In this document: positions 3,016-22,440 of the stretch, one piece after another | Position numbering within the stretch: position 1 is the stretch's first letter | How the letters are laid out: each line of letters begins with the position of its first letter | Sequence record: PX436236.1 | Length of the DNA stretch: 64,000 bases | Source: a phage | Strand: one strand, 5' to 3' | Made by a program: the position numbers and the translations under genes | The notes under the pieces: generated by a model | What the model was told of the DNA's origin: nothing | The model's database searches: none | The model's input: the letters and a program-made list of their open reading frames with translations, nothing else

Positions 3016-4833
3016 TTACGACATCCAGGCCTTACGGAGTTGAGGGTCATTACCAAGGAGCATTTCGAACTGTTCTTTCCAATCTTCAGGTAATTGAACC
3101 ACATCAAATTTAGGGTCTTGAATCATTCGACGGTATTCAGCTTTCTCAAGAGAACCTAGTCCTTTGATATAACGAATAGAATGTTTTGGTAGAGAATCCT
3201 TAGCTTTGGTATAACTAGGCACATCATAGAACCATTCCTGTTCTTTACCAATCTGGGCAATAATTACCGGAGTTTTACAGAAACGTACTCGGCCTTGTTC
3301 GAACAATTCAGGCCATTGACTAAAGAAGGCTAGCAATGATGGATAAATCGAACCAGTACCATCCACATCGGCATCAGTCATAATAGCAATATTACGATAG
3401 TTAGTTTTCTCTGCAGGTTCACCAATAACCAATCCAGTGATTGCACAGATATCAAATAGTTCCTTGTTCTTCATGATATCTGTTGCTGTCATTCCCCAGG
3501 TATTCATAACCTTACCACGCAATGGGTAACCACCTTGAAGGTCTTTATTACGAACTTCAATGAAAGGACCCATAGCGGAATCCCCTTCGGTTAGGAACAG
3601 GGTTGTATCAGCATCTTTGCCGTATAGGTTAGCTTTAATATGCTTATGGACCTTGGCTTTAGAAGCTTTCTTAGCGGCTTTAGTTTCGGCAGCCTTTTCA
3701 GCTGCTAATTTACGTGCTAAAGCAGCTTCAACGATAGGCATAATCAACCCATCAACTTTAAGAATGGCTTGAGCAATTTTCTTAGCATCAATTTGGATAT
3801 GATTGCGAATCTCACCAAAAGGAGAGGTCAAACGTTCTTTAGTCTGTGAATCAAAACGCATGTTGCTCATATCACGAATGAACATCACCATCGTAAGGCA
3901 TTCTTTAACACGAGCTTTAGTTACTTCAATTCCACGGTATTTCTTTTTAATGCCTGGCAGAAGGTGTTCACAAATATCATCGAATACACATTCAACGTGG
4001 TGGCCACCATTCTTGGTGTGGATATTGTTTACATAAGTCAGTTGACGGAATCCATCCGGAGAAGGAGTGAACGCCATCGAAACATTATCGGTTTCTTGGA
4101 TTACAAAGTCTTCACCAAATTGCTTAGCATACTTTTTAAAGTTGCCATCTACTTTTTTACCATTAAAAGTAAATTGAATATCAGGATAAACTACGGCCAG
4201 AGTTTGCAATCGGTCTAATGTAATATCCAGATAAATTTGTGACAGGCTATTTTCTTCGAAATGATTAAAGTCTGGGGTGAATATAACCGAAGTACCCTTA
4301 CCTTTAGATTTCTTAGTAGACCAACCTTTGTTTTCCATTCCGTTTGAACAGTTAACAGTAATCTCATTCTCACCATCAGAGGTGATGCCTGTGAACAAAA
4401 CAGAGAAGATATTAGTTAAACTACTACCGACACCATTCATGCCGCCTGTCTTACGCTCAGCGTCATCTCCAAAGTTACCACCTGCCTTTGGAATAGTCCA
4501 TGCAGCTACAGGACCTGGAATCTGTTCACCATTTTGGTCGGTGACCATTGCTTGTGGAATACCACGACCATTATCAGAAACTGAAACCTGGTTATTCTTA
4601 ATTTGAACATCAATTTTATTTGCGAATTTAAAATTGGTACGAATAGCTTCATCGACAGAGTTATCAATGATTTCATCAATTAATTTAACCAGTCCAGGAA
4701 CATAGTTTACCTGTGTAAAATTACCAAACAGGAATCGACCGTGAGCTTCATTAGCACTTGAGCCAATATACATCCCACTACGTTTTTTGATATGTTCAAT
4801 GTCGGACAGTACTTTAATTTCATTCTTAATCAT
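3016..4833 (-). CDS. 39: DNA topoisomerase II large (ATPase) subunit, gp39 with gene-60 portion fused, 605 aa
   Basis: N-terminus MIKNEIKVLSDIEHIKKRSGMYIGS and GyrB-like motifs; 605 aa is the size of a single uninterrupted 39+60 ORF. Confidence 0.9.
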   Translation of the reverse strand: MIKNEIKVLSDIEHIKKRSGMYIGSSANEAHGRFLFGNFTQVNYVPGLVKLIDEIIDNSVDEAIRTNFKFANKIDVQIKNNQVSVSDNGRGIPQAMVTDQNGEQIPGPVAAWTIPKAGGNFGDDAERKTGGMNGVGSSLTNIFSVLFTGITSDGENEITVNCSNGMENKGWSTKKSKGKGTSVIFTPDFNHFEENSLSQIYLDITLDRLQTLAVVYPDIQFTFNGKKVDGNFKKYAKQFGEDFVIQETDNVSMAFTPSPDGFRQLTYVNNIHTKNGGHHVECVFDDICEHLLPGIKKKYRGIEVTKARVKECLTMVMFIRDMSNMRFDSQTKERLTSPFGEIRNHIQIDAKKIAQAILKVDGLIMPIVEAALARKLAAEKAAETKAAKKASKAKVHKHIKANLYGKDADTTLFLTEGDSAMGPFIEVRNKDLQGGYPLRGKVMNTWGMTATDIMKNKELFDICAITGLVIGEPAEKTNYRNIAIMTDADVDGTGSIYPSLLAFFSQWPELFEQGRVRFCKTPVIIAQIGKEQEWFYDVPSYTKAKDSLPKHSIRYIKGLGSLEKAEYRRMIQDPKFDVVQLPEDWKEQFEMLLGNDPQLRKAWMS

Positions 4834-4857
4834 GTTATTTCCTCATGTAGTAGGAGA

Positions 4858-4884
4858 ATATTATCCCATTTCACTTAAAGCATA
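4858..4884 (-). promoter_or_regulatory. Candidate MotA-dependent middle promoter upstream of gene 39
   Basis: Minus strand reads TATGCTTTA (MotA-box-like), 12 nt, TAATAT, then GGAGAA RBS and the gene 39 ATG. Confidence 0.4.
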
Positions 4885-4900
4885 AAAGGGCCGAAGCCCT
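4878..4900 (-). terminator. Terminator hairpin (AAGGGC-UUCG-GCCCUU) with U-run
   Basis: Stem-loop immediately after the stop of the lipoprotein ORF, followed by TTTTATGCTTT. Confidence 0.5.
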
Positions 4901-5160
4901 TAATCAAATCGAATGGTCGACTTTTTAAAGAATAACCCAGAACAAACTGTTCCTTCAACCCTTTTACCCGTCGGACCGACAGCAATAAAGCCTGTACGTT
5001 GGAAATCATCTTCAGAGCAGCCAAATAGGTTGTATCCTGTGATTTGGATTTGTTCGTAGCCATTTGCATCCAATACACGGGTAGCATTATCGGCATCAGT
5101 ACAACCAACCAACGAAACGGCTAGTACAAGAGCTGCAATAGAACGATTAATATATTTCAT
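4900..5160 (-). CDS. putative lipoprotein, 86 aa
   Basis: Signal peptide with lipobox LVGC. Confidence 0.55.
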   Translation of the reverse strand: MKYINRSIAALVLAVSLVGCTDADNATRVLDANGYEQIQITGYNLFGCSEDDFQRTGFIAVGPTGKRVEGTVCSGLFFKKSTIRFD

Positions 5161-16103: not shown

Positions 16104-16304
16104 ATGGGCAGTATTTTTTACCAAATCTGGAAATTGGCCGAAAAGAAAGACAGGAAAATGATGTTAGGTTTTCTTGCGCTAGACGTATTCCTTTGGAATC
16201 TTCTAGTAGTCCCTGTAGCCGCTAGCCAAGGGATAATTTTACCAGCGGTTACAATGGAACACGTGTTAAGCATAATTGGATTCTTTAGCGGAGTTCCTGC
16301 CTAA
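16104..16304 (+). CDS. small hydrophobic protein, 66 aa, the only convincing plus-strand ORF
   Basis: Strong SD (acAGGAGGataacATG) in a 288-bp gap with no minus-strand coding; product is a predicted membrane protein. Confidence 0.4.
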   Translation: MGSIFYQIWKLAEKKDRKMMLGFLALDVFLWNLLVVPVAASQGIILPAVTMEHVLSIIGFFSGVPA

Positions 16305-17329
16305 ATTTTAGAATATTTTGAAAGTCTCATTTTTGCCATTAAACCTTGGGCTATATTAGCTTTCATATATGCCAGTACATCATTTATATCAGCTTTATCT
16401 TTCATAATCATATCATTTATATCTTTAGAAGGCCATGGAGCCTTGTCCCAGAATAGAACCCTTTCGCCAGCATCAACTAATCGTTGCATACGCTTAATTG
16501 TGTCAGGATGGCGGGGTTCATTGTCCATTACCCAGGCACGAGTTTCTTTACATGGAACCATAGCCAAGTCCAACGACCCGCCAGTAATTGCTATTGCATT
16601 CGGAACAAACAAAGAGTCAATAGGGCCTTCCATTACCCACACCAACTGACGTTCGTCAACTGTATCCATTCCATATATTTTTGTAGCTTGGTCATGAGCT
16701 TTTATTGTAATATATTTTTGTGGAGCATCTTTACGTAAGGCTCGACCCTGAAAACTTTCAATTTGTTTATTCTTATTGAAAATTGGAATAACCAAACGAG
16801 GCTCAGGCATTTCTTTAGAATAGGTCCCTGGATTGACAGAGTTCACCAATGCCGGCCATTCTTTAGTAAACCACAGCCGGTTCCATTTGTTTTCAGGAAT
16901 GCAACGTAACGTCACATATTTGATAATAGGATGGTCCTTTGGCATTCTATCTAGTCGTTCACAGAAATTAAGCTTTTCGATGACAGGCATCTTGGCTTTA
17001 ATTTTTTCAGATATCTCCACCTTAGGTGCAGCTTGTCTCCCGAACGATTGCTCTTTATGTTTCTCAAGAATATATTCTCGATATAAATCAGGCTCATATT
17101 CGTATAGATACTTCTTAATTCCTGCTGAATAGTCACAGTTAAAACAGTGCAGCATTACGGAGCCGTCATTGGCCGGATAGGCCCAAAAACGAGCTTTGTT
17201 CTCATCTTTTAGGGAGTCGCCACATACACGACAACGACAGTTTAATTTAAAATCACTACCAGTTACTTGTCTGAATTTAGGTTGATAATTCAAGGCACGT
17301 ACAGCAAATTCTCTATCGACATATGACAT
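16301..17329 (-). CDS. 61: DNA primase gp61, 342 aa
   Basis: Zinc ribbon CRCRVCGD...CFNCDY, TOPRIM region, C-terminus AQGLMAKMRLSKYSKI as in T4 gp61. Confidence 0.9.
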   Translation of the reverse strand: MSYVDREFAVRALNYQPKFRQVTGSDFKLNCRCRVCGDSLKDENKARFWAYPANDGSVMLHCFNCDYSAGIKKYLYEYEPDLYREYILEKHKEQSFGRQAAPKVEISEKIKAKMPVIEKLNFCERLDRMPKDHPIIKYVTLRCIPENKWNRLWFTKEWPALVNSVNPGTYSKEMPEPRLVIPIFNKNKQIESFQGRALRKDAPQKYITIKAHDQATKIYGMDTVDERQLVWVMEGPIDSLFVPNAIAITGGSLDLAMVPCKETRAWVMDNEPRHPDTIKRMQRLVDAGERVLFWDKAPWPSKDINDMIMKDKADINDVLAYMKANIAQGLMAKMRLSKYSKI

Positions 17330-17545: not shown

Positions 17546-17755
17546 TTATATTACGAAAATAGCTTTATCACCATTTGCATCAGTGACTTCGTACGTATCT
17601 TCGTGGTAAAGTGGAATAATCCAAGTCACACCATCACCGGCAATAATATGGATAGCTTCTTGGTCCTTTGATACGATTTCATACTCTTCGAATAATTCGA
17701 ATACAGAAATCTTAGAGCCCGTACACATTGCACTCATATTGTTCCCTTCTCTCAA
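17546..17755 (-). CDS. hypothetical protein, 69 aa
   Basis: ORF. Confidence 0.4.
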   Translation of the reverse strand: MREGNNMSAMCTGSKISVFELFEEYEIVSKDQEAIHIIAGDGVTWIIPLYHEDTYEVTDANGDKAIFVI

Positions 17756-17933
17756 TCAGTTGGCGATGGGCCTTTTTAAGTTTACGAAGCTGGCGCTTAG
17801 TCGGCCGTGCGACATAAGCTTGAGTAGTTACTCGTCCAAAAACACCATACTTAGGTGAAGGAGAATCGATAAAGACTTCCCACTGACAAGAGTAACTATA
17901 CACCGCTTTAGAGAATTGAGTTAAGACAAACAT
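17712..17933 (-). CDS. hypothetical protein, 73 aa
   Basis: ORF. Confidence 0.4.
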   Translation of the reverse strand: MFVLTQFSKAVYSYSCQWEVFIDSPSPKYGVFGRVTTQAYVARPTKRQLRKLKKAHRQLIERREQYECNVYGL

Positions 17934-17934
17934 A

Positions 17935-18375
17935 TTAACCTCGATTCATAAAGGCATTAAAAATCTGGTCATCTATTGAATAAACCGGGGCTTCCAGAAT
18001 TTTCAACAGACTGTTTTTGATATACTTGCTAGGGATATCCATATTAACACAGTCGTTCAATTCGTTGTCCGGGAGAATATGTTTAAATTCAAACCCATCA
18101 AACTCAACCTTGTCAGGAATACCTTCAGCGAAAAAATAAACCAATTGGTGCATTGTATTGCACGAAAATAATTTAGACCTCACCGCGATAAGTTCTTGCC
18201 AATGGTTTAATTCTCTGTTAAGAAGTTTATGAGCCATTGTAATTCGATCATCGCTATCAACAAGAAAATAACCCAGGTATTGGTGGTCGTCGCTCCAAAA
18301 CATCCTGTATGCTTGTGCATTTGGATTTTTACAACGAAGTTTTTTGATAACTAAATTTCTGTTAATCTTATTCAC
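17935..18375 (-). CDS. hypothetical protein, 146 aa
   Basis: ORF. Confidence 0.5.
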   Translation of the reverse strand: MNKINRNLVIKKLRCKNPNAQAYRMFWSDDHQYLGYFLVDSDDRITMAHKLLNRELNHWQELIAVRSKLFSCNTMHQLVYFFAEGIPDKVEFDGFEFKHILPDNELNDCVNMDIPSKYIKNSLLKILEAPVYSIDDQIFNAFMNRG

Positions 18376-18661
18376 CTGTCACCTCTTTAACGATATTTTT
18401 GTTATCGAAATTGGCATCACAATACAAATTCCAGTTATATTGCATAACACCACCTGAAGCTAATTGGTCTGACACTTCTTTAGCCATATCAGGGCGGTCG
18501 CGTTTAGTGATGTTCATGATATCGGCATAAATCTGATGTTCAACCGATTCTTGGTCTGCAGTCATAGACCATTCACAAAGGTCTTTATCTAATCCAGCCG
18601 TAACTGGAGCTGTGCCACATGATGCTACTGTAAGGATTGCTGCGATTAATAACTTTTTCAT
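18368..18661 (-). CDS. secreted protein, 97 aa, candidate Spackle (superinfection exclusion)
   Basis: Cleavable signal peptide; same length and genomic position as T4 sp. Confidence 0.5.
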   Translation of the reverse strand: MKKLLIAAILTVASCGTAPVTAGLDKDLCEWSMTADQESVEHQIYADIMNITKRDRPDMAKEVSDQLASGGVMQYNWNLYCDANFDNKNIVKEVTGE

Positions 18662-18677
18662 AATGTTCTCCTCGGTA

Positions 18678-18719
18678 GTTGATAGGGGTAATATACTACA
18701 TTACCCCTTTGATGTAAAC
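18678..18719 (-). promoter_or_regulatory. Early-promoter cassette
   Basis: GTTTAC, spacer, TATATT, CCCCTATCAAC; inverted repeat GGGGTAAT/ATTACCCC flanks the -10. Confidence 0.5.
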
Positions 18720-18721
18720 TG

Positions 18722-18925
18722 TTATTTTTCGTTAGAACGATAATCACACTCAAAAACTTTATTGTCATCAACAAAGGCTTTCACCAGCGCATTATTCACT
18801 TCTGCATACTGCACTGTAACCCATTCAATCATATTTTGGTCACTAACATCTAGAACGGTTTCTTTGGTAAACATATTACCATTTTCAAACCAACCAATAA
18901 ACACTACTTTCTCTAATTTAGGCAT
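18722..18925 (-). CDS. Dmd-like small protein, 67 aa (candidate antitoxin-type RNase inhibitor)
   Basis: N-terminus KVVFIGWFENGNMFTKE recalls T4 Dmd from memory; clear paralog of the next ORF. Confidence 0.4.
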   Translation of the reverse strand: MPKLEKVVFIGWFENGNMFTKETVLDVSDQNMIEWVTVQYAEVNNALVKAFVDDNKVFECDYRSNEK

Positions 18926-19120
18926 TTAGATTTCCTTAATACGTGCATCATGTTCATAAACTTCTACGCCATCAACATAGGCCTTGACTAGAATGTTATT
19001 GACTTCAGCGAATTGAGTAGCCACCCACACAATATCATTTTCAGGTACTGAAGCTTCTTTGGTAGTGGTATCATCATTATTAAAACAGCATACAAATTTT
19101 ACCGTAGTCAATTTGGACAT
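18926..19120 (-). CDS. Dmd-like small protein, 64 aa, tandem paralog
   Basis: Shares QYAEVNNALVKAFVD / QFAEVNNILVKAYVD with the neighbour. Confidence 0.4.
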   Translation of the reverse strand: MSKLTTVKFVCCFNNDDTTTKEASVPENDIVWVATQFAEVNNILVKAYVDGVEVYEHDARIKEI

Positions 19121-19438
19121 TTAGATTTCCTCACAGAAGGCCCATTCAGCATGATAAACCGTAGCGCCTTTAGTATCATTTAAACAAACCACATCCACCG
19201 GAGCAATTACACGATAAAGACGGGGTTCTCCTCCCACTGAACGAGCTGCACGTCCAGCATAAATCTTAGCCAAACCGATATCTTCAGTAAAGAACACACG
19301 ATTTAGGTTTTTCTTACGACCGGTTTCAGACAGAACTCCTGTTTCCTCAGGAGGACAAAGCATATTACCGATATTAGCGACACTACAACTTCCATGGTAA
19401 TACACTTTATATTCTGCTTTACAGTCGATGGTTTTCAT
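19121..19438 (-). CDS. hypothetical protein, 105 aa
   Basis: Start set at the ATG of MKTIDCK, preceded by GGAGAAC. Confidence 0.45.
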   Translation of the reverse strand: MKTIDCKAEYKVYYHGSCSVANIGNMLCPPEETGVLSETGRKKNLNRVFFTEDIGLAKIYAGRAARSVGGEPRLYRVIAPVDVVCLNDTKGATVYHAEWAFCEEI

Positions 19439-19450
19439 TTTGTTCTCCAA

Positions 19451-19491
19451 GTTGATAGGTCTATAGTATCACGCCTACAGGAGATGTAAAC
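19451..19491 (-). promoter_or_regulatory. Early-promoter cassette
   Basis: GTTTACATCTCCTGTAGGCGTGATACTATAGACCTATCAAC on the minus strand. Confidence 0.55.
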
Positions 19492-19498
19492 CCTTAAA

Positions 19499-19524
19499 AA
19501 CAAAAAAGGAGCCGAAGCTCCTTA
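19499..19524 (-). terminator. Terminator hairpin (AAGGAGC-UUCG-GCUCCUU) with U-run
   Basis: Sits after gene 41 and immediately before the promoter cassette. Confidence 0.55.
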
Positions 19525-20961
19525 AAATTTGATAGATGCTGCTAAATCGTCCAAATCACTTCTATTAACACGCGTCTGTCGATTGACCTCGGCCTGGCGA
19601 TTCATCTCACCTGTAGCCTCACGAACAGTGTTCACTGGGCCTGGGTTGGAATCATCTTCAACTTCGTACCAACGTTGATTTCCTTTCTTAACGCCAATCT
19701 TAAATTTGTTGTAGTAGCTCTTATCGCCATAACGAGATTTAAGCTGCTTAACCATTTGCATACCCATCTGAGCGAACTCTTCTGTCTCGACCACACCCAA
19801 CATGAAGTCTGCAGTATGTGCAATACCAAAGGATTCAGCAATATCGGCCATATCGATTTCGGCTGCAACGTTCGCACCACGAGTAGTCTGGGCTGCAGTC
19901 CACAACAGTAATTTCTTCTCTACTGCAAGTCCACGTAGTTCTTCAGCAACCATCTTAATCAATCCGTAACTGTTTTCAGAGAAAACTTTCGTACGAGACG
20001 ATGCACAGATAGCCAAGTAGTCAACGATAACGACCTGTGGGACAAAGTTTTGTTTGAGCTTGTATTCGTTTAATAATGCACGGAATGTATCGGCATTAGC
20101 GCCACCGGTAGGGTACTGTTTAATCTTTAAACGACCCAAGGTAGCAGTTGAACGCCATTTATCCATCTTAGCTTTATATTCAGGCCACGAGACGTGACCA
20201 TCATCGATATCATCCAGCGACACGTCCAGAAGGTTGGCATCGATACGCTTAGCACATACTTCCTCTGCCATCTCCATGGAGATATAAAGAACATCGTAAC
20301 CAGATTGAAGATAATCAGCAGCCAATGAACAAAGACCAAGAGACTTACCTACGTTTGTTCCTGCCAACAATACGTTTTCAGTACCAAACTCAGCACCACC
20401 TTTGGTAATCTTATTCAGAATATTAAGACGGAACGGAACCTTACGTGCTTTATCGGAATAACTTTTGAATCGTTCTTCATAGTCATCCATCCAGTCATGA
20501 CCTAATTCAGAATCGAAACAAATCGATAATGCATCACGCATGATATCCGGAATAGCACCAATACCTGGAAGTTTTCTATTTTGTTGCTCAACCGGAAGGT
20601 CGGCATTAGTTTGGATTTCAATGATTTTTGAAGTTGCATTATACATCGCTGCTTTCTGAACGTATTTCTCCGTCTCTTTAACCAACCATTCTTGGTCTTC
20701 AGGTCCGGCATTCAGCGAACTTAAAAGCTCTTTAGCGCCTTGGTGTTCAACTTCTGAAAGCGTACTGTTATCTAATGCAATGCTCAATGCGTTCTTAGAA
20801 GGCACTGCATTATATTCATTGACATGTTTTTTAATTTCTTTGAAAAGGGTCTTTGCAGGACCCTGGTCAAAATAAGAATCATTCATATAAGGCCAGACCT
20901 TAGTGAAATAATCACTATTGCCTAGCAGTTGAGCCAAAATAGTTTCTACCACTTCCACCAC
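19522..20961 (-). CDS. 41: replicative DNA helicase gp41 (DnaB-like), 479 aa
   Basis: Walker A GTNVGKSLG and high similarity to remembered T4 gp41 over the whole length. Confidence 0.9.
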   Translation of the reverse strand: MVEVVETILAQLLGNSDYFTKVWPYMNDSYFDQGPAKTLFKEIKKHVNEYNAVPSKNALSIALDNSTLSEVEHQGAKELLSSLNAGPEDQEWLVKETEKYVQKAAMYNATSKIIEIQTNADLPVEQQNRKLPGIGAIPDIMRDALSICFDSELGHDWMDDYEERFKSYSDKARKVPFRLNILNKITKGGAEFGTENVLLAGTNVGKSLGLCSLAADYLQSGYDVLYISMEMAEEVCAKRIDANLLDVSLDDIDDGHVSWPEYKAKMDKWRSTATLGRLKIKQYPTGGANADTFRALLNEYKLKQNFVPQVVIVDYLAICASSRTKVFSENSYGLIKMVAEELRGLAVEKKLLLWTAAQTTRGANVAAEIDMADIAESFGIAHTADFMLGVVETEEFAQMGMQMVKQLKSRYGDKSYYNKFKIGVKKGNQRWYEVEDDSNPGPVNTVREATGEMNRQAEVNRQTRVNRSDLDDLAASIKF

Positions 20962-21275
20962 CTCTTAGATTTAATTTTATCCAGTTCTTCTTGTATTTGC
21001 ATTGTAACACATTTTTCTACATGAAGCGCTAGCTCTTCTTTTCGGTCTTCGGAAGGTGTTCCGAAATCAACCGACACTTTTCCATCTTTCTCAATAACAA
21101 TATTCATCACATAAACGATGTGAGCAGTGCCATCGGGTAAAGTAAGCATAATTTCCTGCTTAACAGAACCCATTGACTTACGGATTATATCTAATGATTT
21201 CTCATAATAACGAGGGTCACTAGGACCCTCTTCGGTATCTTTAACGAAATTATCTAAATCAGATAAATCAGTCAT
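20946..21275 (-). CDS. hypothetical protein, 109 aa (gene 40 position)
   Basis: ORF between uvsX and gene 41; position only. Confidence 0.45.
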   Translation of the reverse strand: MTDLSDLDNFVKDTEEGPSDPRYYEKSLDIIRKSMGSVKQEIMLTLPDGTAHIVYVMNIVIEKDGKVSVDFGTPSEDRKEELALHVEKCVTMQIQEELDKIKSKRWWKW

Positions 21276-22440
21276 CTAAATTCATCTCTTCCAAATCGTT
21301 TTCGATATCAGCGGCGCTTTGGGCATTACCACCTAATTTAACAGCAACGTTCTTAGAGACACGAGAGTTAATAAGGTCGTTCACTGCATCGTCAACTTCT
21401 TTAATAGAATTAATTGCACCGAGCTTATACTTATTCTCGATTGCTTCACGGAACGGGGCATGTTTAAACAGCGGTCCCCAGAACTCGACACAATCGGTAG
21501 CTTTAGCACGCCATGCTTTTTCTTCTTGAACCATTTCGCCTGTGGTTTCGTCAAGGAATGCACGATTATACCAGCCGGCTTTAGGTTTCACGACAAAGCC
21601 AATATCAGTAGCCATTTCAAGCAATCCACTGAATGGGTCGATACCACCTTCGAAGTTCACTGTAATCGGGAACGTTGATTTCTCTTTAACCGTACGAGAT
21701 TTCTCGGCCTTCAGTGTGAAGTCATAACCAGTGAGCTCAGTACCATCTTTAACCTGACGTTTAGAGATAAAGAACACGGTAGAAGCAGAGTACAGAATAC
21801 CAGTACCACCACCCATAATCTCTTTAGGGTACATTCCACCAATTTCCATAGCCGTGTGGTTAATTGCTACACAAGGGATATCTTTGATGGTCAGATAAGG
21901 TGTTACGATACGGAACAGAGATTTCAGTGATTTAGCACGAGTCATATCACCTACAACTTTCTCGTTCAAAGCATCTTCGGTTTCTTTCTTAGAAGCAGTG
22001 TTACCAATGGAGTCGATAAAGATAATAACCTTTTCGCCACGAGTAATTTCTTCTAACTGGTTGGTCATATCAACTTTAAGCTGTTCGACTGACTGGATTG
22101 GTGTATGAACCACACGTTCCAAATCAACACCCATCGAACGGAAATAAGATTCTGAAGCACCAAACTCAGAGTCATAGAACAAACAAATTGCGTCTGGATA
22201 TTTCTTCATATATGCCGCAACCATGGTAAGTCCAAACAACGTTTTAAAGTGTTTAGATGGAGCAGCAAAGATTGTCAAACCTGATTGTAAGCCTGCATTC
22301 AACGCACCGCCTAATGCAATATTCAGCATAGGGATACGAGTAGGAACTTCGTCACGACCATTAAACAATTTAGATTTGGTCAGGTCGGCGGTCATTTTAG
22401 AAGTAGAAGCTTTAATCAAACGGGATTTTAAATCAGACAT
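21268..22440 (-). CDS. uvsX: UvsX recombinase (RecA-like), 390 aa
   Basis: N-terminus MSDLKSRLIKASTSK is near-identical to T4 UvsX. Confidence 0.92.
   Translation of the reverse strand: MSDLKSRLIKASTSKMTADLTKSKLFNGRDEVPTRIPMLNIALGGALNAGLQSGLTIFAAPSKHFKTLFGLTMVAAYMKKYPDAICLFYDSEFGASESYFRSMGVDLERVVHTPIQSVEQLKVDMTNQLEEITRGEKVIIFIDSIGNTASKKETEDALNEKVVGDMTRAKSLKSLFRIVTPYLTIKDIPCVAINHTAMEIGGMYPKEIMGGGTGILYSASTVFFISKRQVKDGTELTGYDFTLKAEKSRTVKEKSTFPITVNFEGGIDPFSGLLEMATDIGFVVKPKAGWYNRAFLDETTGEMVQEEKAWRAKATDCVEFWGPLFKHAPFREAIENKYKLGAINSIKEVDDAVNDLINSRVSKNVAVKLGGNAQSAADIENDLEEMNLDD

Follow-up and report, generated by a model that had tools for sequence, protein, structure and literature searches.

Two adjacent small open reading frames (ORFs) lie on the minus strand of a 64,000-nt stretch of PX436236.1, referred to here as the window, in which positions are counted from the first letter. 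The phage is a T4-like coliphage of the JS98 group (genus Dhakavirus), and region 18300-19600 of the window matched ~190 phage records, with 96.3% nucleotide identity to Escherichia phage KIT01. The promoter-distal gene, dmd-A (18722-18925, minus strand), encodes a canonical Dhakavirus-type Dmd protein of 67 aa, and the promoter-proximal gene, dmd-B (18926-19120, minus strand), encodes a 64-aa Dmd paralogue of a divergent sub-lineage, termed "CCF." Both genes start with ATG, their coordinates include the stop codon, and the next ATG comes straight after each stop (stop/start coupling). A first-pass annotation had reported adjacent ORFs of 67 and 64 aa that were paralogs with a common core, and this description was borne out in full. 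A BLASTP comparison of the two proteins detected 31 identities over 66 positions (47%; E value, 5e-16), which is far above chance, and the quoted core, AEVNN-x-LVKA-x-VD, was present as AEVNNALVKAFVD in A and as AEVNNILVKAYVD in B. No third dmd copy was detected within the 64-kb window by tblastn with A and B as queries.

The neighboring genes are also encoded on the minus strand, in the order uvsX (21268-22440), gene 40, the gene 41 helicase (19522-20961), an ART-like gene (19121-19438; 105 aa, or 109 aa and extending to 19450 if read from an upstream TTG), dmd-B, dmd-A, spackle (18368-18661; Pfam T4_Spackle, 141.8 bits), an unnamed ORF of 146 aa (17935-18375), a DUF7279 ORF of 73 aa (17712-17933), two small ORFs, and the DNA primase gene 61 (16301-17329). 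Genes 41 and 61 were located by alignment with the annotated KIT01 genome, and the pair does lie between them, as had been claimed. This order (41, ART-like gene, B, A, sp, and then 61) is the early-cluster Dmd position of T4-like phages. In T4 too, dmd (gene 61.5) follows gene 41 and precedes spackle and gene 61, in the same kind of early unit, but there a single dmd gene is followed by tifA (61.4) and no ART-fold gene is present, whereas the window has two copies after an ART-fold gene. RB69 resembles the window in having an ART-like gene, ORF040c, directly upstream of dmd and differs from it in having a single dmd copy.

Consensus scans of the intergenic regions detected a promoter-like site at 19463-19490 (minus strand; TTTACA-16-TACTAT with TG), ahead of the ART-like gene, dmd-B and dmd-A. 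Before it, at 19506-19523, a hairpin resembling a terminator, likewise a consensus match, follows gene 41. A further promoter-like site from the same kind of scan, at 18690-18718 (minus strand; TTTACA-17-TATATT, a 10/12 match), lies between dmd-A and spackle and would mark the 3' boundary of a three-gene unit comprising the ART-like gene, dmd-B and dmd-A. The dmd gene of T4 is transcribed from an early promoter located directly upstream (PMC9391042).

The ART-like protein is a homologue of RB69 ORF040c and matched PHROG 2110, which is annotated as "unknown function," with an E value of 1.7e-60. Its family is highly conserved and comprises 115 homologues from T4-like phages of many enterobacteria and of Acinetobacter, in which H15, G16 and Y60 are invariant. 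The AlphaFold2 model of the protein (pLDDT, 84.6) had as its best PDB folds Arr (9iaf; E value, 0.02; TMq, 0.58), Arr-2, PltA, cholera toxin A1 and ParT. The predicted fold resembles those of minimal ADP-ribosyltransferases, which agrees with the Pfam search, where Arr-ms was matched weakly (E value, 0.029). A sequence-profile search of the PDB with this family produced no match, the ART matches having come from fold comparison, and a functional study of the family was not found in the literature.

Two further ORFs of this interval show similarity, in one case confined to the C-terminal tail, to known counter-defense genes. T4 TifA, or gp61.4, is the inhibitor of the ToxN toxin, and the 73-aa ORF at 17712-17933 belongs to the same Pfam family as this protein and JS98 gp61.4 (DUF7279; 68.6 bits), with 34% identity to T4 TifA (E value, 2e-12) and a shared RPTKRQ(I/L)R motif. 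In the window, no gene occupies the canonical 61.4 slot, which lies between dmd and spackle; both DUF7279 genes are present in JS98-like relatives. The 146-aa ORF at 17935-18375 sits at the position of gene 61.2 and matched PHROG 8539 ("unknown function"). It shares only its last 14 residues, the DDQIFNAFMNRG tail (93% identical), with RB69 gp61.2 (AdfA), the anti-DarT factor, and the Pfam AdfA match was limited to residues 133-146 (E value, 0.007). On this pattern, the ORF looks like a different protein with an AdfA C-terminal tail or like a recombination joint within the gene. With ART-like, TifA-family and AdfA-tail genes as neighbors of the pair, the interval between genes 41 and 61 looks like a shuffling ground for small counter-defense genes.

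Membership of the Dmd family

Dmd, a protein of 60 aa, is the textbook case of a phage-encoded "antitoxin mimic." To our knowledge, the only Dmd proteins studied so far are those of T4 and, at the level of structure, RB69. Infection stops host gene expression, and the labile antitoxins RnlB and LsoB vanish and are replaced by Dmd, which binds directly to the toxins RnlA and LsoA, both of them HEPN RNases, and so blocks them and protects late phage mRNA; in a T4 dmd mutant, the late mRNAs are lost (PMC5308261, PMC8266594). Both RnlA and LsoA are neutralized by T4 Dmd alone (PMC5308261). As these two toxins have only ~20% identity across the part that can be aligned, a single Dmd protein can already be broad in its range.

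The likeness of both ORFs to Dmd, which the first-pass annotation had proposed, was clearly borne out by searches of Pfam, PHROG and the PDB. Pfam PF17587 (Dmd; gathering score, 27) was matched with 78.5 bits by A and 48.3 bits by B, and PHROG 2102 ("Dmd") was matched with E values of 5.9e-34 and 4.2e-25, respectively. Among solved structures, RB69 Dmd (PDB 5I8J) was detected with E values of 3.6e-23 for A and 1.5e-09 for B, and T4 Dmd bound to LsoA (PDB 5HY3, chain B) was detected with E values of 4e-18 and 1.7e-10. RB69 Dmd is the closest solved structure to A (67% identity) but is only 47% identical to B.

An AlphaFold2 model of B (pLDDT, 90.6) had a beta-beta-alpha-beta-beta topology, with strands at residues 4-12, 18-26, 44-49 and 52-58 and a helix at residues 27-41. 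Foldseek superimposed this model on 5hy3_B with an rmsd of 0.6 Å over 57 residues (TM, 0.87/0.97) and on RB69 Dmd (5i8j_B) with TM values of 0.86/0.89, and no other significant fold match was detected for the model beyond T4 and RB69 Dmd in this search. A single compact Dmd domain of ~60 aa was thus apparent in the B model, and A is 62 to 67% identical to the solved chains. The residues W31 and N40 of T4 Dmd are reportedly needed for LsoA binding (work attributed to Wan et al. in 2016), and an alignment indicated that the equivalents of both are conserved in the two copies, the tryptophan in "IEWVT" of A and "IVWVA" of B and the asparagine in "AEVN." Both copies also retained the most conserved part of the Dmd family, the W..Q.AEVN..LVKA core. 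In family membership, in a size of 60 to 67 aa, in the beta-beta-alpha-beta-beta fold and in the helix core, the pair resembles T4 Dmd. Overall, these comparisons indicated that both ORFs are members of the Dmd family by their sequences and, for B, by its predicted fold as well.

The Dmd family has a very narrow membership. When 1.84 billion representative proteins were searched exhaustively with an HMMER profile, nine matches were obtained at an E value of ≤0.001, two of them artifacts, and a word-indexed search for homologues of B detected just four clusters. The two artifacts were giant repetitive proteins, one of 2559 aa (E value, 6e-16, through 12 short stretches) and one of 2312 aa (E value, 3e-07, through 6 short stretches). 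They were rejected as compositional matches rather than Dmd repeats because they also match many unrelated Pfam families and have no significant stretch.

Lineages of the two copies and the junction repeat

The first-pass annotation had described the pair as tandemly duplicated, which stands in the sense of side-by-side paralogs but not in the sense of a recent local duplication, as A is closer to the Dmd proteins of T4 and RB69 than to B and each type is found alone in other phages. The A protein matches copy A of KIT01, and the sole Dmd of MX01, LHE83 and E33, with 100% identity. Its identity falls to 85 to 97% for other Dhakavirus and Gaprivervirus Dmd proteins, to 67% for RB69 Dmd, to 62% for T4 Dmd and to only 48% for B. 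The B lineage has 43 to 50% identity to all other Dmd proteins (43% to T4 Dmd and 47% to RB69 Dmd), and B is 77 to 80% identical to the single Dmd of WG01 and IME08. An A-type gene stands alone at the locus in JS98, MX01 and SP18, and a B-type gene stands alone in WG01, IME08, Bp7, QL01 and related phages. A and B are therefore not each other's closest relatives, as the products of a recent in situ tandem duplication would be. At the nucleotide level, A and B have 61.5% identity, with a dS of ~1.5, which is near saturation. Recent gene conversion between A and B was considered and rejected given this level of identity and the lack of any long identical tract other than the junction repeat. These relationships indicated that, as judged from their sequences, A and B are two old Dmd lineages that have been stacked and not a fresh duplicate.

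The boundaries of the B cassette are formed by a repeat. The first copy of AGGAAATCTAAATG (19118-19131, minus strand) spans the end of the ART-like gene (..EEI*), a Shine-Dalgarno sequence, the TAA stop codon and the ATG of dmd-B, and the second copy of AGGAAATCTAAATG (18923-18936, minus strand) spans the end of dmd-B (..KEI*), a Shine-Dalgarno sequence, the stop codon and the ATG of dmd-A. The 64-kb window contains this 14-mer at these two sites and nowhere else, whereas chance alone would give 0.08 copies. A 15-mer, GAGGAAATCTAAATG, was present at every cassette boundary in KIT01, fDHCT2, 04086, ABTNLsp5, JS98, WG01, IME08, MX01 and SP18, where it covers the final ..EEI codons of a gene, the stop codon, a Shine-Dalgarno sequence and the ATG that follows. 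It is found at three kinds of junction: ART-like gene to dmd, B to A, and dmd to the next small ORF.

Alignment of the window with MX01, which carries only A, detected one clean 195-bp insertion, consisting of the B cassette, between the two repeat copies. The ART-like gene upstream is 99.7% identical to that of the B carrier WG01, while A is 99% identical and its downstream flank 93.5% identical to those of MX01. The combination of an insertion bounded by repeats, a WG01-like upstream side and an MX01-like downstream side makes unequal crossover the simplest origin. We infer that the pair would have arisen by such a crossover at the 14- to 16-nt junction repeat (G/A)AGGAAATCTAAATG, where one gene ends and another begins, between one parental genome with a B cassette and another with an A cassette. 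This putative origin has an analogue in the laboratory evolution of T4, in which the dmd-tifA unit at the same locus amplifies in tandem via microhomologies of 6 to 10 bp (Srikant, Guegler and Laub 2022, eLife, PMC9391042). The amplification was selected for a higher dose of an inhibitor, namely tifA, and extra dmd itself gave no benefit (PMC9391042). The laboratory arrays and the window pair are alike in their locus, in their short flanking homologies and in serving counter-defense against a toxin-antitoxin system, but the arrays are identical, unstable and dose raising, whereas the pair consists of anciently diverged alleles fixed in natural phages.

A second recombination joint was indicated within the 3' end of dmd, where the tail of A is mosaic and tracks the downstream module. 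The tail is ..CDYRSNEK where spackle follows directly, as in the window (18722-18745, minus strand), KIT01, MX01 and SP18, and it is ..YDARIEEI, which is the B-type tail, where orf46 and 61.4 follow, as in JS98, fDHCT2, 04086 and ABTNLsp5.

Distribution and pairing of the B sub-lineages

Among the ~800 phage records with a Dmd homologue, the B-A tandem was present in four (KIT01, fDHCT2, 04086 and ABTNLsp5), all of which have the same architecture of ART-like gene, B and A as the window. Both genes are annotated as "discriminator of mRNA degradation" in KIT01 (KIT01_034/035), and the pair is annotated as dmd_1/dmd_2 in fDHCT2. In ABTNLsp5, a Salmonella phage (B at 2501-2695 of the examined locus), and in SHP1, the B-type Dmd is mislabeled as "translational repressor protein"; in 04086, the B copy (2501-2692 of the examined locus) is not called as a gene. 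Phage DCP80, in which A matched two places by tblastn, was left out as a tandem since the second match was not at the dmd locus. The B protein of the window is 91% identical to that of KIT01 (BBI57383), from which it differs by six residues with almost no synonymous change, while the A proteins of the two phages are identical. An exact look-up did not detect the B sequence of the window on record, and literature searches on the pair, on Dhakavirus dmd and on KIT01 turned up no discussion of the tandem.

The tandem was more common in public assemblies of sequencing runs and metagenomes, in which the B alleles P0132, P0129 and P0138 were found on 24, 13 and 1 contigs, respectively, and tandem contigs numbered at least 38, from many samples. 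A scan of IMG/VR with B yielded only three contigs, which were isolate derived and carried GHF-type singles, and no new tandem.

Two sub-lineages of B were distinguished by their N termini, the CCF type having MSKL..VCCFN and the GHF type having MSES..VGHF(A/T). A CCF-type B was immediately followed by an A-type Dmd in 19/19 loci examined (the window, the four isolates and 14 metagenome or SRA contigs, 3 of which end inside the A copy), an association that is phylogenetically non-independent and may stem from a single founding event combined with linkage. The GHF-type B was alone in all six loci examined. The same CCF alleles were paired with differing A alleles and differing downstream modules, with or without orf46 and 61.4, which suggested that the tandem has survived repeated reshuffling. 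The exclusive pairing of CCF-type B with A would be explained if the two copies acted on different subsets of toxins, though recombination at the repeat could easily drop either cassette.

The two sub-lineages are 77 to 88% identical. Six fixed differences, at which they share no residue, are at positions 3, 4, 5, 11, 12 and 14, all of which fall in beta1 and the beta1-beta2 turn and which take in the G-W/H-F motif kept by canonical Dmd proteins. Both ORFs were intact in every complete tandem locus examined, and B was intact in all 19. The pN/pS ratio was 0.36 for CCF-type tandem B (eight alleles), 0.35 for A and 0.08 for the single GHF-type B. These values indicated that both tandem copies are under purifying selection and that constraint on B is looser where A accompanies it than where B has to work alone.

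The Dmd family, its expected genomic place and the presence of a tandem pair in GenBank annotation are already known. What appears to be undescribed is the two-lineage cassette with a fixed junction repeat, the finding of CCF-type B never alone and the B allele of the window.

Function of the pair

The most likely reading of the locus, which we hold with slightly better than even confidence, is that the pair represents two working antitoxin mimics that belong to one early transcription unit and whose toxin ranges differ in part. The ART-like gene, dmd-B and dmd-A would form this unit, and the two products would each bind RnlA-family HEPN toxins via the conserved helix core. The A protein, in which the canonical GWF..MFTKE strand-hairpin is kept, would supply general activity against RnlA and LsoA. 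In CCF-type B, the helix core (W, Q-x-AEVN) is retained while beta1 and the turn are altered, and the subset of RnlA-family toxins that it blocks may differ from that of A. In this way, the pair would widen the host range of the phage, that is, the range of hosts in which late mRNA survives.

The first-pass annotation had suggested that two diverged copies could broaden the range of toxins counteracted, and the sequences of the host genes make such a broadening plausible. At least four diverged RnlA-family lineages were detected in E. coli and Salmonella. The K-12 rnlA gene (3919-4992 of the examined locus) was present with at least 99% identity in 363 of 5,426 complete E. coli genomes, and a chromosomal rnlA variant with 72% nucleotide identity and its own RnlB-family antitoxin was present in 72 genomes. 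The lsoA gene was found on mobilizable plasmids of 3.3 to 11 kb in E. coli and Salmonella, and a further plasmid-borne "RnlA family toxin" was found on plasmids of 3.7 to 7.9 kb. Counting against a split in range, T4 Dmd handles both RnlA and LsoA by itself, and most of the ~800 records that carry Dmd have a single copy.

A more specific form of this reading, which we regard as possible but put forward only tentatively, is that CCF-type B is a neofunctionalized paralogue. Stacked beside a generalist A and with beta1 and the turn changed, it may neutralize an RnlA-family or other HEPN toxin that A cannot, and it would have lost the ability to stand alone, which would account for its occurrence only in the tandem.

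Two other explanations do not require a division of targets. Both copies may block the same toxins and so provide more early inhibitor, as a fixed and diverged version of the T4-type amplification. The tandem amplification of dmd-tifA in T4 under selection for inhibitor dose (PMC9391042) would be a precedent for this, the W..Q.AEVN..LVKA family core is retained in both copies, and the pN/pS ratio of 0.36 in tandem B compared with 0.08 in single GHF-type B would be expected if A backs up B. We nevertheless consider dosage or redundancy unlikely. With 47% identity, and with each copy closer to single-copy alleles elsewhere than to its neighbor, the pair was not born as a dose-raising duplicate; the fixed changes in tandem B at the otherwise conserved G-W/H-F motif point to altered function; and in the T4 experiment it was not extra dmd that conferred a benefit (PMC9391042). 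The rarity of the tandem, with 4 of ~800 Dmd-carrying isolate records, would fit a B cassette that was acquired when recombination happened to occur at the junction repeat and was then kept by linkage alone, being idle or on its way out. The repeat makes gain and loss of a cassette mechanically easy, and the six residue changes between the B proteins of the window and KIT01, with almost no synonymous change and identical A proteins, are consistent with such a neutral passenger. Against this are the intact B genes in 19/19 tandem loci with a pN/pS of 0.36 over eight alleles, the persistence of the tandem through many recombination events and its occurrence in many samples, on 38 contigs or more, and the good Shine-Dalgarno site and stop/start coupling of B, and we judge this explanation to be quite improbable.

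The absence of CCF-type B as a sole Dmd would also be expected if it were unable to replace A because its target had changed. It could inhibit some other host factor, either another HEPN nuclease or an unrelated defense, or work with the ART-fold protein, to whose gene it is always stop/start coupled, and the fixed changes of the CCF type in beta1 and the turn would fit such a change. This coupling is not specific to B, as phages with only A couple to the ART-like gene too. Moreover, the fold and helix core are almost exactly kept, with the B model lying within 0.6 Å of toxin-bound T4 Dmd, and the GHF-type B, at 77 to 88% identity, evidently suffices as the sole Dmd in WG01-like phages. A new target for CCF-type B is, in our view, very unlikely.

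The pair leaves the understanding of Dmd itself unchanged. The 15-nt repeat of stop codon, Shine-Dalgarno sequence and start codon, present at every cassette boundary, illustrates the way in which small genes are exchanged and stacked in T4-like phages. If CCF-type B were indeed neofunctionalized, the locus would show where, in nature, the "amplify, then diverge" route observed at this T4 locus in the laboratory can end and would offer a simple system for mapping a toxin-specificity switch of a 60-aa inhibitor. The two anciently diverged Dmd cassettes may serve as a natural experiment on the target range of small anti-defense proteins and on host range, to which the pairing rule, with one B sub-type always paired and the other always alone, adds a further element. 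Such an experiment would be of relevance to Dhakaviruses, which are being isolated as candidates for phage therapy of avian pathogenic E. coli and Salmonella.
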